In this document: piece by piece, positions 31,478 to 61,199 of the stretch
How the letters are laid out: every line of letters begins with the position of its first letter
Position numbering within the stretch: position 1 is the stretch's first letter
Assembly (NCBI GenBank): GCA_016182385.1
Contig: JACPGV010000002.1
Location: forward strand, 125,190 to 189,189
DNA: 64,000 nucleotides
DNA from: Candidatus Moraniibacteriota bacterium
GTDB lineage: Bacteria > Patescibacteriota > Minisyncoccia > Moranbacterales > UBA1568
Direction: 5' to 3'
Program-made: the position numbers and the translations under genes
Notes under the pieces: generated by a model
What the model saw: the letters and a program-made list of their open reading frames with translations, nothing else
What the model was told of the DNA's origin: nothing
Database searches by the model: none

Positions 31478-31549
31478 GGCCCCATCGTCTATCGGCTAGG
31501 ACATCAGGTTCTCATCCTGAAAAGAGGGGTTCGATTCCCCTTGGGGCTA
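31478..31549 (+). tRNA. tRNA-Glu (anticodon CTC)
   Basis: Acceptor GGCCCCA/TGGGGCT, anticodon stem TCAGG/CCTGA with loop TTCTCAT, T-arm AGGGGTTCGATTCCCCT. Confidence 0.8.
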
Positions 31550-31703
31550 CAGATTAACCAAAACCTCCAGGAATCATCATGGAGGTTTTGGTTTATGTAT
31601 CTAGGGGGAATCGAAGGGCGCGAGTAGAATCTGAGCGAGCGAGGATTCTGTGTGTAGCGCCCAGGCTCCGAGTCGGAGCGAGGAGGATTCCCCTTGGGGC
31701 TAC
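31550..31703 (+). repeat. tRNA-linked structured repeat element (bidirectional terminator hairpin AAAACCTCCA-GGAATCATCA-TGGAGGTTTT; antisense T-arm piece GGGGGAATCGAAGG; core GAGTAGAATCTGAGCGAGCGAGGATTCTG; ends with GGATTCCCCTTGGGGCTAC, a copy of the tRNA-Glu 3' end)
   Basis: Near-identical second copy at 61046-61199 behind tRNA-Glu(TTC); the hairpin loop is reverse-complemented between the copies. Confidence 0.75.
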
Positions 31704-42310: not shown

Positions 42311-43809
<1,499 letters not shown>

Positions 43810-55292: not shown

Positions 55293-55745
55293 CTAAAGAA
55301 AAATCAAAAAAGAGTTATAAAGACCGTGCAGGAGGATGGCGGTAAAAAGGGTAAAAAATACGAAAGGTCGGGGAAAGCGAGATATCGCGAAAAAAAGAGA
55401 AAAACCGGTAGTCATATGCACGAGAAAAATACCGGTAAGATTAAGAAGAGAAGGGAAATGGGTAGTCATGGTGATAGTAAGGATTTCTGTGCAGGAAAAA
55501 CCAACCCCGAATAAACCGCCGAGCAGAAGAAGACGAAAAAAAGAAGGAAGGGATGTAGAGTGCGCAAACCTTATTATGTATTGTTTGAGAAAAAACAATT
55601 TGCACGTTTCTTCTATAAAAACAAAAAACCATAAAGAAAAGAATCCTCTGAGAGGAAGAAGAAAGACGCTAGAAAAGAGGAGTTCTACAATGAGAGCGAA
55701 GCCGGCTGCGAGAAGACCGAAAATAAAAATAATGAGAGGAGGCAT
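55293..55745 (-). CDS. hypothetical polytopic membrane protein
   Basis: 150 aa, 4 TM helices; stop 4 nt after valS. Confidence 0.4.
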   Translation of the reverse strand: MPPLIIFIFGLLAAGFALIVELLFSSVFLLPLRGFFSLWFFVFIEETCKLFFLKQYIIRFAHSTSLPSFFRLLLLGGLFGVGFSCTEILTITMTTHFPSLLNLTGIFLVHMTTGFSLFFAISRFPRPFVFFTLFTAILLHGLYNSFLIFL

Positions 55746-55748
55746 AGA

Positions 55749-58700
55749 TTAGTTTTGTAATGATGCCAGATGATTTTTGATATCAAGAAGCTGTTTTTGC
55801 GATTCTTTGAGTTTGCCGTGTTTTGTTTCGATGATTTCTTTTTTAGCGCGTTCGATAAAGTTTTTGTTCGAGAGTTTGGCTTCGAGTGTCGCGATATATT
55901 TTTCTTTTTCGTCTTTTTCTTTTGTGAAGCGCGCCCGTTCTTTGGCGATATCGACGACGCCATCGAGATGAAGGAAAGCAGAGAGGAGTCCGTATTGGAC
56001 GCGAAGAGTGTTTTTCGGCGCGACAGCGCTTTTGAGTGTTTGAAGTTTATCGATGCGCGCGAGACGTTTGAAAATTTCTTCGTTGCCACGAAGGGTTTGT
56101 TCGGACTCGCCGAAAGCGCTCACAGTCATCTTTTGTGCCGGATCGATATGGTAAGCCGCGCGGACATTGCGGATAGTCGAGATGAGTCCTTTCACGAGCT
56201 CGAAGCGATTTTCCGTGGCGATTTCAAGTTTTGTCGTATCGAATTCTGGCCACTTGGCGATCATCAGAAATTCGTTCGTATCGAAATGGAACGTCTGGTG
56301 TATGGCTTCGGTGACGAACGGCATAAAGGGATGCCAGAGTTTGAGGATTTTGTCGAAAGCGTAGCGGAGCAGGGCATCGTTTTTCTCGACCTTGTGCACT
56401 TCGACATACCAGTCGGCGAAATCACCCCAAGTGAACTCGCGGAGCTCTTCGGCGGCGAGCGAAAGCTCGTAGCGTTCGAGGTGGCGTGTGATGTCGCGGA
56501 CGATCGCGTGGAGTTTTTTTATCAGGTACTGGTCTGCATCCGTCTTTGGCTCTGGCGGCGTATTCGTTTTTTCTGTCATGGTGCCGACATAACGCGCGAG
56601 ATTCCAAAGCTTGTTGGTGAAATTACGCATCATAACGATCTTTTCATCTGAGAGCCTGAGATCGTTGCCGGGTGTTGAACCGGAAATAAGTGCCATACGA
56701 AGCGCGTCAGCACCGTATTTTTCTGAAACCGTGAGCGGGTCGATTACGTTGCCGAGACTTTTACTCATCTTGCGACCCTGTTCGTCGCGGACGAGGCCGT
56801 GAAGATAGATGGTGTCGAAAGGGTGTGTGTCGAGGAGATATTCCGTCATAAGAATCATCCGTGCCACCCAGAAAAAGAGGATGTCATAGCCGGTTTCGAG
56901 GAGACTGGTCGGATGATAATTTTTGAAATCAACCGCGTTTTCATCTGGCCAGCCGAGCGTTGAGAACGTCCACAATCCCGACGAGAACCACGTATCGAGC
57001 GTATCAGGATCTTGTTCAAAGAAATGATGGCCACAATATTCGCATGGCTTGAGAATATCAATAGAAAGCGGAGTGGCATTCGGGAACCTTTTGATGTTCA
57101 TGATGGATTCTGGTGTAACACCTTGTATTTTTCTCCAGAGTGCGCGCAGTACGGCTCCATGGCTCGTTATGAGCACGTTTTTATGGGAATGTTTTTCAAG
57201 ATGTTCCGAGACTGCTTTCCAGATTCTGTTTTCTGCCTCCTCATAACTTTCATTATTAGCGGATTTTCCATTGTATTTTTGGAGATCTGGGAATCGTTTT
57301 TTCGTTTCTGAATATGATAGGCCTTCGGCTTTGCCCATATTTCTTTCTTGGAGACGGTCATCAATGATGATTTCATCCACTCCTATTTTTTTACCGATGA
57401 TTTTGGCTGTTTCGTGTGCTCGAGAAAGGTGTGAGCTGAAGATAACTCCGATATTTTCAGCGGCGAGTTTTTCTGCTGTAAGACGTGCCTGTTCGCGTCC
57501 GGTTTCGTTGAGCGGAATATCAGTGGTTCCGGCGTTGATTTCTTTCTTGTTCCAATCTGTTTCTCCATGGCGCACAAAAAACCATCGGGACTTTACGGTT
57601 GCGTTGATGCGTTCTTTTTTGCAGGAGAGACAGTACCACACGGGAATGCGATGGCCGAACCAAATCTGGCGTGAGATACACCAGTCGCGGAGATTGTCGA
57701 TCCAGTGGAAGTATGTTTTGGAGAATCGTTCGGGGAGAAGAGTAATTTTTCCTGGCCCGACGGCTTCGCGCATCAGTTGTTTGAGTGTCGTCTTTTTTCC
57801 ACTATGGTCGAATTCTTTGTTCACCGCTACGAACCATTGGCGCATCGGGATGATTTCGAGTACGTCTTCGTAGCGATCGCTTGTCCCGACGTTTTGTGTG
57901 ATGTCTTCTTCTTTCTCAATGAGATCGTTCTCACGGAGCCAGAGGACGAATTTTTCACGCGCTTCGAGTGTTGTGAGGTGGGCATAGTCTTGGCCCGCTT
58001 CGGCCGTCATGGTTCCGTCAGTGTCGATGACTTGGATGAGATCGATTTCTGGATGACGCTCACGCATTTCGAAATCGGCATGACTGTGGGCGGGTGTGAC
58101 GCCGACCGCGCCGGTACCAAACGCGGGGTCGACGGATTCGTCCGCGATGATTTTGATTGCAAGCGGTTTGGCGGAGCCTACGTCGGCAGTGAATGTTTGC
58201 CCGATGTATTTTTTGTAACGTTCGTCATCCGGATGGACAGCGATAGCCGTATCGCCGAGCTTGGTTTCGGGACGGGTGGTCGCGATGGCGATAGGAAAAT
58301 TTTTCGAGTAGCGGAAGGTATAGAGTTTTGCTTGCCGTTCAATAGTGACGACCTCATCGTCGGAACAGGTGGACTGCCCCTTGATCGTCCAGTTGACGAC
58401 ACGATAACCGCGGTAGATGAGTCCGTCATCATACATTTTTTTGAAGGCGGTACGGACAGAAAGACTGCGTTTTTCATCGAGTGTGTAGGCTTCGCGCGAC
58501 CAGTCGAGTGACGCGCCCATTTTTTTGGTCTGATGGACGATCGTGTCGTGACTTTGCTGAGCAAATGTTTCAATACGTTTCAAAAATTCTTCCCGACCGA
58601 GATCGAAGCGGGTTTTTTGTTCTTCTTTCCAAAGAATGTTTTCCACTTTGCTTTGTGTGGCGACAGCGGCGTGGTCAGTGCCGGGGATCCAAAGTGTCCG

Positions 58701-58949
58701 ATCTCCCTTCATCCGATGGTAGCGGACGATCGTATCCTCAATGGCGAGCATCGCGGCATGGCCGGCATGAAGCGTGCCGGTGACATTCGGCGGGGGAAGG
58801 ACGATCGAAAAAGTCGGTTTCGTTTCGTCAGTGATATTTTTTTTGATGCAGATATCGGGATTGAAGAGACCGCTTTCTTCCCATTTGGAATAAAGCTCGT
58901 TTTCCCACTCCTTGGCATCGTATGTTTTCGGAATATTGTTTTCATTCAT
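55749..58949 (-). CDS. valS: valyl-tRNA synthetase with an inserted histidine-phosphatase (PGAM-like) domain
   Basis: 1066 aa; class I motifs PPPNVTGTLHAGHA (HIGH) and KMSKSLGN; WCISRQIWFGHRIPVWYC and DPDTLDTWFSSGLW anchors; C-terminal coiled coil. Between the CxxC pairs (LSCKKE ... CEYCGHH) lies a domain of about 190 aa with FVRHGETDWN, SSHLSRAHETAKII, ITSHGAVLRAL. Confidence 0.9.
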   Translation of the reverse strand: MNENNIPKTYDAKEWENELYSKWEESGLFNPDICIKKNITDETKPTFSIVLPPPNVTGTLHAGHAAMLAIEDTIVRYHRMKGDRTLWIPGTDHAAVATQSKVENILWKEEQKTRFDLGREEFLKRIETFAQQSHDTIVHQTKKMGASLDWSREAYTLDEKRSLSVRTAFKKMYDDGLIYRGYRVVNWTIKGQSTCSDDEVVTIERQAKLYTFRYSKNFPIAIATTRPETKLGDTAIAVHPDDERYKKYIGQTFTADVGSAKPLAIKIIADESVDPAFGTGAVGVTPAHSHADFEMRERHPEIDLIQVIDTDGTMTAEAGQDYAHLTTLEAREKFVLWLRENDLIEKEEDITQNVGTSDRYEDVLEIIPMRQWFVAVNKEFDHSGKKTTLKQLMREAVGPGKITLLPERFSKTYFHWIDNLRDWCISRQIWFGHRIPVWYCLSCKKERINATVKSRWFFVRHGETDWNKKEINAGTTDIPLNETGREQARLTAEKLAAENIGVIFSSHLSRAHETAKIIGKKIGVDEIIIDDRLQERNMGKAEGLSYSETKKRFPDLQKYNGKSANNESYEEAENRIWKAVSEHLEKHSHKNVLITSHGAVLRALWRKIQGVTPESIMNIKRFPNATPLSIDILKPCEYCGHHFFEQDPDTLDTWFSSGLWTFSTLGWPDENAVDFKNYHPTSLLETGYDILFFWVARMILMTEYLLDTHPFDTIYLHGLVRDEQGRKMSKSLGNVIDPLTVSEKYGADALRMALISGSTPGNDLRLSDEKIVMMRNFTNKLWNLARYVGTMTEKTNTPPEPKTDADQYLIKKLHAIVRDITRHLERYELSLAAEELREFTWGDFADWYVEVHKVEKNDALLRYAFDKILKLWHPFMPFVTEAIHQTFHFDTNEFLMIAKWPEFDTTKLEIATENRFELVKGLISTIRNVRAAYHIDPAQKMTVSAFGESEQTLRGNEEIFKRLARIDKLQTLKSAVAPKNTLRVQYGLLSAFLHLDGVVDIAKERARFTKEKDEKEKYIATLEAKLSNKNFIERAKKEIIETKHGKLKESQKQLLDIKNHLASLQN

Positions 58950-60973: not shown

Positions 60974-61045
60974 GGCCCCATCGTCTATCGGTTAGGACAT
61001 CAGGTTTTCATCCTGAAAAGAGGGGTTCGATTCCCCTTGGGGCTA
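60974..61045 (+). tRNA. tRNA-Glu (anticodon TTC)
   Basis: Same scaffold as tRNA-Glu(CTC) at 31478 but D-loop TCGGTTAGG and anticodon loop TTTTCAT. Confidence 0.8.
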
Positions 61046-61199
61046 CAGATTAACCAAAACCTCCATGATGATTCCTGGAGGTTTTGGTTTATGTATCTAG
61101 GGGGAATCGAAGGGCGCGAGTAGAATCTGAGCGAGCGAGGATTCTGTGTGTAGCGCCCAGGCTCCGAGTCGGAGCGAGGAGGATTCCCCTTGGGGCTAC
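61046..61199 (+). repeat. tRNA-linked structured repeat element, second copy of the 31550-31703 element (hairpin loop reverse-complemented: TGATGATTCC)
   Basis: About 99% identical to 31550-31703 outside the 10-nt loop; ends with GGATTCCCCTTGGGGCTAC. Confidence 0.75.

Follow-up and report, generated by a model that had tools for sequence, protein, structure and literature searches.

Aminoacyl-tRNA synthetases (aaRSs) are among the most conserved enzymes, and the bacterial ones rarely carry an extra catalytic domain inside their catalytic core. Here, we analysed a 64,000-nucleotide stretch of DNA from Candidatus Moranbacteria (Patescibacteria, or candidate phyla radiation, CPR; contig JACPGV010000002.1, positions 125,190 to 189,189), referred to below as the window, and found that the valyl-tRNA synthetase (ValRS) gene located there encodes a histidine phosphatase embedded in frame within the synthetase. 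The open reading frame (ORF) runs from ATG to stop on the minus strand (55749-58949) and is predicted from its sequence to be the housekeeping valS gene, encoding a complete class Ia ValRS which, with the phosphatase cassette, reaches 1066 aa. The insert itself is predicted to be a whole histidine phosphatase with all of its catalytic residues, of the small PhoE/PspA/GpgP type, and it is apparently enzymatically active. It is modular, mobile by recombination and convergently acquired. The original prediction, made from the letters of the window, is thereby refined, as the architecture is not unique to this genome but is a widespread, recurrent patescibacterial feature. It apparently represents an unreported lineage-specific domain insertion in an aaRS, which is wider and convergent in Patescibacteria.

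The cassette comprises a CxxC pair, the phosphatase and a second CxxC pair, and spans aa 440-644 (205 aa; 57018-57632; all features of the gene given here lie on the minus strand). Its borders were set by blastn against a related allele without the insert (locus L002, described below), by the codon-level junctions and by an AlphaFold2 (AF2) model. The first pair, CLSC (aa 440-443; 57621-57632), is conserved in embedded and free-standing forms, and the second, CEYC (aa 636-639; 57033-57044), identified by motif and in the AF2 model, lies three residues past the last β-strand of the phosphatase. The original prediction had placed a histidine phosphatase at 57045-57617, i.e., aa 445-635, which is exactly the stretch between these two pairs; the unit that is gained and lost, however, is larger, since it includes the knuckle as well as the phosphatase (aa 440-644). 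The assignment to the superfamily was borne out by Pfam, in which His_Phos_1 (PF00300) matched aa 457-625 (57075-57581) with 162 bits in the whole protein (cutoff 21.7; E=1.4e-47) and 166 bits in the insert alone (E=7.9e-49). No other His_Phos domain was found in the window. All catalytic motifs quoted beforehand could be located: RHGE (aa 460-463; 57561-57572), containing Arg460 and the phospho-acceptor His461, with R and H invariant in 69/69 sequences; LSRAHET (aa 508-514; 57408-57428), with the second phosphate-binding Arg, R510; and TSHGA (aa 595-599; 57153-57167), with the second catalytic His, H597. The catalytic Glu, E535, was found too, in QERNMG (aa 534-539; 57333-57350); the last three were assigned by motif and conservation. 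The branch 1 catalytic residues R460, H461, N467, R510, E535 and H597 are thus all present, and they are invariant across embedded and free relatives; counted by the insertion classes defined below, the R/H/N/R/E/H set is conserved in 28/28 copies of type A1, 5/5 of type B, 3/4 of type A2 and 13-14 of the 14 copies in isoleucyl-tRNA synthetases (IleRSs). The earlier claim of an intact active site therefore stands.

The four cysteines C440, C443, C636 and C639 lie between the GHRIPVW strand and the DPDxLDTWF helix, are kept in A1 carriers and free forms, and by position and motif qualify as a putative zinc knuckle of the CP3 subdomain. The comparison with the knuckle of Bacillus subtilis ValRS, from which the original prediction had started, holds for some relatives and is limited to them, because most ValRSs of the clade have a 21-residue, Cys-poor loop and no zinc knuckle.

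Modelled alone by AF2, the module reached pLDDT 92 and pTM 0.88. In the full-length model (mean pLDDT 88.5, pTM 0.78) the blocks of the insert scored 90-97, and confidence was lower only at the two junctions. Strand 1 of the modelled phosphatase (aa 454-460) terminates at the RHG motif and its last strand comprises aa 628-632; since both strands adjoin the Cys pairs, the knuckle would staple the two terminal strands. According to Foldseek, the best solved folds are PspA, GpgP/'hydrolase 1' and PhoE/YhfR, with TM scores of 0.79-0.82 over the whole chain and E about 1e-17, at a sequence identity of only 24-28%. These small branch 1 phosphatases (PhoE/YhfR, 1H2E and 1EBB; PspA, 4IJ5 and 4IJ6; GpgP Rv2419c, 4QIH and 4PZ9; mycobacterial hydrolase 1, 6S2Q) share with the insert the whole-length fold, the same RHG/Arg/Glu/His set and a size of about 180-200 aa, and like it they have no segment typical of 2,3-bisphosphoglycerate-dependent phosphoglycerate mutases (dPGMs). 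However, they are free-standing, some of them dimeric, and have no Cys pairs, whereas the insert is clamped by the four-Cys knuckle within an aaRS.

In dPGMs, the 'WRR' segment is the substrate-binding Arg pair. When the insert was aligned with Schizosaccharomyces pombe PGM (1FZT), a six-residue gap fell opposite 'VQIWRR'. The dPGM assignment was rejected, as this Arg-Arg segment is deleted, TIGR01258 gave 80.3 bits (cutoff 81.7) and the NF0107xx models scored far under their cutoffs; the TM scores to dPGM chains in Foldseek were 0.63-0.69. CobC was rejected as well (TIGR03162, the best NCBIfam match of the insert, yet with 123.9 bits against a cutoff of 162.9), and so were the PspA equivalog (NF045917; 84 bits against 350, though PspA is the closest solved fold) and SixA (TIGR00249; 33.3 bits against 74.5). 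The insert reached no NCBIfam equivalog cutoff. Taken together, the scores under the cutoffs, the missing Arg pair and the fold point to a generic small phosphomonoesterase, and not to a mutase. An intein, a Hint-type element or another self-mobile insert was also considered and dismissed: no Hint, nuclease or homing-endonuclease domain was found by Pfam or NCBIfam, the insert terminates in ...HHFF/EQ and not in HN/C, and the His_Phos fold fills it.

The remainder of the protein has the properties expected of a ValRS. The ORF matched the valS equivalogs NF004349 with 955.1 bits (cutoff 704) and TIGR00422 with 894.8 bits (cutoff 612.1) in NCBIfam, the match being split in two by the insert; likewise, the Pfam match to tRNA-synt_1 comes in two stretches with His_Phos_1 between them. 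The landmarks named in the original prediction (HIGH, WCISRQ, GHRIPVWY, DxDTLDTWFSS and KMSKS) were all located at defined residues of this ORF, and the columns invariant among ValRSs in our alignment (A4) are all kept. Pfam and motifs place the first Rossmann half, the CP1 editing domain, CP2 and the CP2-CP3 linker up to GHRIPVWY in aa 1-439 (57633-58949). Within this part, the HIGH-type signature LHAGHA (aa 60-65; 58755-58772) has H61, G63 and H64 invariant or near-invariant, the Thr-rich editing-domain peptide TTRPET (aa 224-229; 58263-58280) has T224, R226, P227, E228 and T229 invariant, and so are G278, G280, T285, P286, H288 and D292 of the editing-site motif GTGAVGVTPAHSHADFE (aa 278-294; 58068-58118). 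The CP2-CP3 linker and the strand entering CP3 form WCISRQIWFGHRIPVWY (aa 423-439; 57633-57683), in which WCISRQ is aa 423-428 and GHRIPVWY aa 432-439, and at whose end, as fixed by identity to L002, lies the 5' junction of the cassette. The 3' junction is at EQDPDTLDTWFSS (aa 645-657; 56979-57017), where the second Rossmann half starts and identity to L002 restarts at GAACAAGATCCTGAT. Further on come the loop STLGWP...ETGYDI (aa 663-694; 56868-56963), called site B here and short in the window protein as judged from motif spacing in relatives, and the KMSKS signature (aa 727-731; 56757-56771), invariant or near-invariant in A4. They are followed by the anticodon-binding domain (Anticodon_1, PF08264, E=3.8e-33; aa 806-942; 56124-56534) and the C-terminal coiled-coil tRNA-binding arm (Val_tRNA-synt_C, PF10458, E=5.6e-10; aa 1000-1065; 55755-55952). 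At Rfam gathering thresholds, no regulatory RNA was detected 5' of valS.

The catalytic, editing, anticodon-binding and coiled-coil modules are therefore the same as in canonical ValRS, e.g., that of Thermus thermophilus (1GAX), and it is CP3 that differs. This subdomain, flanked by the strand GHRIPVWY and the helix DPDTLDTWFSS, joins CP2 to the second Rossmann half. In the window protein it holds a 190-aa enzyme between its Cys pairs, while canonical CP3 is small, with a zinc motif in some species, and its topology and zinc content vary between species (PMC7191050). The CP2-CP3 linker of yeast IleRS contributes to the pocket that binds reveromycin A, a mimic of the tRNA CCA end (PMC7955072). 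The homologous linker in the window ValRS is WCISRQIWFG, and the cassette starts about 12 residues beyond it.

An assembly chimera or a frameshift could in principle have joined a phosphatase gene to valS. In favour of such an artefact one may count that the sequence comes from a metagenome-assembled genome (MAG), and that the valS core is far closer to another, GC-richer lineage than the neighbouring genes are. However, this explanation is effectively refuted and we give it next to no weight. The Logan assembly of run SRR12113421, made by a second assembler, contains an unbranched contig which matches the window over 11,015 bp at 100% identity, with both junctions in the matching part. Moreover, dozens of samples and sources, independent of each other, show these junctions again, even where cassette identity is as low as 36%; both junctions keep the reading frame, and AF2 modelled the full-length protein with good confidence. 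The fused architecture was thus found widely in related genomes, with the same junctions, and the view that it is no trivial frameshift or chimera is upheld.

An allele that lacks the cassette was found in the MAG GCA_052034975.1 (L002), in which valS lies in the same gene neighbourhood as in the window and carries the 17 residues RGEETYCGIEAPEGDDW where the window gene has the 205-aa cassette. In blastn, DNA identity between the two genes was 97.7% in the 5' tract (57634-58941) and 95.1% in the 3' tract (55810-57017). The junctions are codon-precise, as identity ends past the WY codons and restarts at EQDPD. Positions 55810-58941 of the window align to 2404-4971 of L002, with the tract ends just within the gene, and the syntenic neighbours (tsaD and the downstream genes) are only 67-77% identical; the genomes differ in GC content (43% for the window genome vs 51% for the MAG of L002). 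The contrast between 95-98% identity in valS and 67-77% in its flanks indicates a recent exchange of valS between diverged Moranbacteria lineages. A separate history of cassette and core was seen in other carriers, too. The proteins P0004 and P0005 are 96% identical in their cores and only 58% in their cassettes, and among 18 complete A1 carriers the nearest neighbours by cassette and by core were discordant in 13/18 cases (Mantel r 0.29). The core has a GC content at third codon positions (GC3) of 0.58, close to that of the L002 genome (0.59), while the cassette has 0.41, close to that of the window genome (0.40). It would be tempting to conclude that the core was imported and the cassette is native, but we dropped this composition argument as proof, since all eight other carriers show the same contrast: cassette GC3 is under core GC3 in 9/9 A1 carriers examined (the window and loci L007-L013 and L020), by 0.02-0.25. 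In most carriers examined, valS cores are also GC-richer than the neighbouring genes. The cassette is thus a plug-in, with an allele polymorphism, a separate history, no co-adapted host positions and free-standing survivors. Heterology that stops recombination tracts at the cassette borders may be a neutral way to keep a resident cassette.

The distribution of the architecture was assessed in the 120 closest ValRSs from NCBI, JGI, ENA and Logan, 29 of which contain PF00300. By the spacing between landmark motifs, these fall into three configurations: in A1 (20 proteins, including that of the window) the phosphatase lies between the two CxxC pairs; in A2 (4 proteins) it follows WYKK directly, without Cys pairs; and in B (5 proteins: P0061, P0065, P0070, P0077 and P0080) it is placed about 25 residues downstream, past STLGWP, the site A loop being short. 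A scan of species-representative genomes found the full module in ValRSs of MAGs labelled Saccharibacteria, Liptonbacteria, Paceibacteria, Sungiibacteriota and Patescibacteria group. The A1 inserts score 150-176 bits against the free phosphatases and only 60-86 bits against the A2 and B inserts, and A2 and B each form a clade of their own (bootstrap 99% and 100%). On this sequence comparison, A1, A2 and B are non-homologous configurations and amount to at least three separate captures in ValRS.

The second host is IleRS. The locus L038:3474-7001 of Magasanikbacteria UBA10197 encodes an IleRS (TIGR00392, 854 bits, cutoff 621) in which a His_Phos domain separates the two Cys pairs of the CP3 subdomain, and about 15 further IleRSs with His_Phos were found. 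There, the insert is positioned between '...VGS..EL' and 'DLHRPYID...CxCGG' (P0241-P0248, P0281, P0286, P0289 and P0337, from Patescibacteria and Peregrinibacteria). We also performed an exhaustive search of 1.84 billion representative proteins and considered the best 150 hits; it did list embedded ValRS copies, while a word-index search with the insert alone listed none. Among these 150, all large hosts tested were ValRS or IleRS: eight long proteins with multiple hits were checked and proved to be IleRS-type synthetases with 2-4 His_Phos domains, and the eight longer hits with full-module coverage are ValRSs or ValRS fragments.

Tandem arrangements of 2-4 domains occur in the IleRS-type proteins P0362, P0380, P0387, P0391, P0393, P0440, P0452, P0469 and P0289, and P0362 has four of them, with 417 bits in total. 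P0307, an IleRS fragment, has His_Phos followed, in the same region, by a serine-hydrolase/alpha-beta-hydrolase domain (PF06821, PF00561). P0364 (476 aa) begins at the cassette (aa 4-210) and runs into the C-terminal half of a ValRS, and represents either a fragment from the end of a contig or a ValRS that is divided at the cassette. In P0103, an A2 protein, the second catalytic His is replaced by Ser (...IIASSGTRKV), and in one IleRS copy the catalytic Glu is changed to Ala; judging from these substitutions, the two copies may be inactive.

Inserts of other kinds, 85-167 aa long, were found in the same two loops, at site A in P0028, P0111 and P0012, and at site B in P0038, each type once. The P0038 insert is weakly ASCH/DUF3850-like, under the Pfam cutoff, and the other three have no Pfam match. 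These unrelated inserts in the same loops mark CP3 and its surroundings as an insertion hotspot. Nevertheless, histidine phosphatases are far over-represented among the inserts of the CP3 region.

Six free-standing proteins of about 210-220 aa have the termini of the cassette, starting with C[LM]SCG.EY...LKIKS.WFLVRHGETDWN and ending with PCxxCGGD[FL]YE. Three free forms that seemingly lack the first Cys (L003:7983-8636, L088:193-837 and L087:1338-1991) are start-codon miscalls, as an in-frame upstream ATG restores MPNYFC[ML][SG]CG in each of them. In bootstrapped neighbour-joining trees, A1 and the free forms together make a clade in 84% of replicates, while A1 is monophyletic without the free forms in only 1%. 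Since the free forms nest in the embedded clade, they most likely derive from an embedded ancestor and carried the ValRS knuckle along. The opposite order, in which a free Zn-clamped phosphatase brought the knuckle in, was rejected because the bootstrapped trees put the free forms inside the embedded clade. One free four-Cys phosphatase, P0136 (L005:8001-8657 and L006:1266-1922), lies within the S10 operon, where the order is tuf, rpsJ, phosphatase, a 64-aa reverse ORF, rplC and rplD, an unusual break of a highly conserved operon. The other free copies, P0121, P0123 and P0129 (L003, L087 and L088), are found in variable neighbourhoods: one adjoins two Fic genes and an AcrVA2-like gene, another a LAGLIDADG-like ORF and IF-2, and another T5orf172/MUG113 (GIY-YIG-like) and Shedu SduA_C. 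These surroundings look like conflict or mobile-element islands. A phage origin of the cassette was considered and gained no support, since viral contigs had only distant generic His_Phos domains without the Cys clamp.

The closest evolutionary precedent is the CAAD domain of cyanobacterial synthetases (Olmedo-Verd et al. 2011). CAAD occurs in monomeric class I aaRSs of cyanobacteria and has stand-alone homologues (Curt1); its commonest host is ValRS (79 species), followed by IleRS (11 species), with two alternative insertion points in ValRS, a patchy distribution among related species and some signs of transfer of the domain between aaRSs (PMC4893482). The likeness, a lineage-restricted, repeated and independent recruitment into ValRS and then IleRS, concerns the evolutionary pattern only. 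CAAD is a transmembrane anchor with a structural role, located outside the catalytic domain, in Cyanobacteria; the patescibacterial insert, in contrast, is predicted to be a soluble enzyme with an intact active site, lies in or next to CP3 inside the catalytic domain, and comes in 2-4 tandem copies in IleRS. No Pfam match to the CAAD/Curt1 transmembrane domain was found in the window ValRS. Joining of a nucleic-acid or nucleotide enzyme to a small CobC/PhoE-like phosphatase is also seen in the RNase H/acid phosphatase of the Rv2228c type (NF005567, the second-best NCBIfam match of the insert with 98 bits, cutoff 326) and in MutT1 Nudix plus His_Phos (NF052459). However, these are end-to-end fusions with other partner enzymes, whereas the window cassette is an insertion. 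The exception-level NCBI family NF040702 ('ileS_w_GNAT') is an IleRS with an embedded enzyme, but this is an N-acetyltransferase and not His_Phos, and the window protein scores 127 bits against its cutoff of 1999.

In the literature that we searched, including a 2026 preprint on IleRS evolution and the AARS Online catalogue paper, no description of a histidine phosphatase in any aaRS was found, which agrees with the suspicion in the original prediction that the architecture is undescribed. As the sequences are public and have precomputed Pfam hits, it is undescribed and not unseen. At NCBI, the exact window protein is called 'MAG: class I tRNA ligase family protein [Candidatus Moranbacteria bacterium]', and the insert-bearing P0001, P0011, P0074 and P0242-P0244 are likewise only 'class I tRNA ligase family protein', while insert-less relatives are labelled 'valine--tRNA ligase'. 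Because of these generic names, valS or ileS may be scored as missing in automated CPR surveys.

What could the embedded enzyme do? The explanation that we favour overall, tentatively and with somewhat less than even confidence, is a ValRS with a plug-in autonomous phosphatase acting on charging-linked phosphorylated species. The synthetase would charge tRNA-Val normally, and the tethered domain would act as an autonomous phosphomonoesterase via a phospho-His461 intermediate, which would make the enzyme bifunctional. The domain would be attached at a distance of about 12 residues from the segment lining the pocket for the tRNA CCA end, and its substrate would be a phosphorylated species linked to the Val/Ile charging cycle, not an unrelated metabolite. 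As top candidate we propose a tRNA whose 3' end carries a blocking phosphate or pyrophosphate; the domain would take this group off and give back a 3'-OH that can be charged. The substrates suggested in the original prediction, a nucleotide, a tRNA 2'/3'-phosphate or an alarmone, are further possible candidates. That the phosphatase is coupled functionally to charging in some form seems to us nearly, but not quite, an even question; the specific mechanism of unblocking the tRNA 3' end in this way we hold to be unlikely. A tie to charging is suggested by the convergence on ValRS and IleRS with copy amplification, by the anchoring next to the CCA-pocket segment, by the free copy in the S10 operon, by the strain-level polymorphism typical of conflict genes, and by the fact that there are toxins which pyrophosphorylate tRNA 3' ends with tRNA specificity. 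Such toxins, which act on the CCA end, have been described (PMC11559606, bioRxiv 10.1101/2021.04.30.441581). If the domain were an on-board antidote, removing phosphate or pyrophosphate that toxSAS/CapRel/FaRel2-type enzymes put on the tRNA CCA end or that HipA/HipT-type kinases put on the synthetase, this would account for the repeated independent captures in both synthetases, the increase to 2-4 copies, presence or absence that differs between strains, the mosaicism and the conflict-type neighbourhoods of the free copies; we consider this version decidedly unlikely.

Several points weigh against a link to charging. All of the insert's closest relatives, by sequence and by structure, have small molecules as substrates, and to our knowledge no member of the histidine-phosphatase superfamily acts on RNA ends. 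In the AF2 model, the active site is probably at the end of the domain opposite the attachment, with the pocket away from the ValRS body. The embedded modules have no basic RNA-binding signature, their net charge being acidic to neutral like that of generic free phosphatases. No ValRS core columns co-varying with cassette carriage were detected, which, together with the escaped free copies, implies that the tether is not obligatory. Permissiveness of the loop may explain part of the recurrence, and the statement that ValRS and IleRS are the only large hosts is limited to the best 150 hits. An ordinary small-molecule phosphomonoesterase (PhoE/PspA/GpgP-like) merely tolerated in a variable CP3, with a substrate unrelated to valine charging and with co-expression with the translation apparatus as the most that the fusion yields, would agree with the relatives, the charge, the undetectable host co-adaptation and the persistence of free-standing escapees. 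It would agree as well with the natural variability of CP3 topology and zinc content (PMC7191050), with the unrelated inserts in the same loops (P0028, P0111, P0012 and P0038), and with the CAAD precedent, in which a recurrent inserted domain need not affect catalysis (PMC4893482). We regard this as possible, if rather unlikely, since at least three captures in ValRS plus those in IleRS, with 2-4 copies, concern one superfamily while other insert types occur once each, the tested large hosts among the best 150 representatives are all Val/Ile synthetases, and one free form sits inside the S10 operon.

The same superfamily also includes protein phosphatases, e.g., SixA, PGAM5 and Sts-1, and HipA and HipT phosphorylate GltX and TrpS. 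The insert might therefore remove an inhibitory phosphate (e.g., on the KMSKS loop) put on ValRS or IleRS by a HipA/HipT-type kinase. A weak match to SixA (33 bits), strain-level presence and absence and mosaicism, typical of conflict loci, and the proximity of free forms to Fic, AcrVA2-like and Shedu genes speak for it, but no kinase directed at ValRS or IleRS is known to us, the SixA model is far under its cutoff (33 vs 74.5) and the nearest relatives are small-molecule enzymes, which makes this self-protection improbable. We give similarly little credit to a neutral or selfish cassette, from which the host gains nothing, and which would spread among valS and ileS alleles by homologous recombination at the invariant flanking motifs and persist because precise loss is rare. 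Its patchy distribution on the core tree, the discordant histories of cassette and core, the codon-precise swap, the GC3 under that of the host gene in 9/9 carriers and the LAGLIDADG-like and T5orf172/GIY-YIG-like genes next to free copies are what such an element would leave behind. However, the cassette encodes nothing that would mobilise it (Hint, nuclease and transposase domains are all absent), no copy turned up on viral contigs, and the six catalytic residues are near-invariant across copies about 40% identical and across independent captures, whereas a passive spacer needs none of them. Retention of the catalytic residues in nearly all copies of all classes also makes a non-catalytic role very improbable, in which the domain would provide docking, a tRNA-handling surface or localisation as CAAD does; such a role can refer to the CAAD precedent (PMC4893482), to P0103 (A2) without its second His and to the IleRS copy with Glu changed to Ala.

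Some further features of the window may be mentioned. An ORF for a multi-pass membrane protein of 150 aa (55293-55745, minus strand) begins 4 nt past the valS stop codon on the same strand; its L002 counterpart matches PF13367 (PrsW protease), and the Logan annotation (L001) calls an ORF on the opposite strand there. A complete 16S rRNA gene stands alone at 42311-43807, with no 23S or 5S match in the window at Rfam gathering thresholds; rRNA genes thus appear to be unlinked in this genome. Two tRNA-Glu genes (31478-31550 and 60974-61046, anticodons CTC and TTC) share 64 nt at 97% identity, and they are the sole internal repeat match in the comparison of the Logan contig with the window.

The recurrence of the architecture in related bacteria suggests a link between tRNA charging and dephosphorylation which has not been described before. 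Convergent captures within one radiation of ultra-small, host-dependent bacteria would mean that tethering dephosphorylation to Val/Ile charging has been selected, and the convergence on ValRS and IleRS argues for such selection. The codon-precise cassette polymorphism makes the function directly testable, and the 96-98% identical insert-less allele offers a ready-made matched control. Should the substrate turn out to be a metabolite, the architecture would be a clear natural case of a domain inserted where a loop permits it. If instead the substrate is a blocked tRNA end or the phosphorylated enzyme, it would reveal a new defence or repair layer of the translation apparatus. If the domain does serve as an antidote, Val/Ile charging would be kept working under attack by hosts, phages or competitors. 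This would make the protein the first aaRS to be inherently immune to toxins that target translation, and also the first member of the histidine-phosphatase superfamily with tRNA as its substrate.

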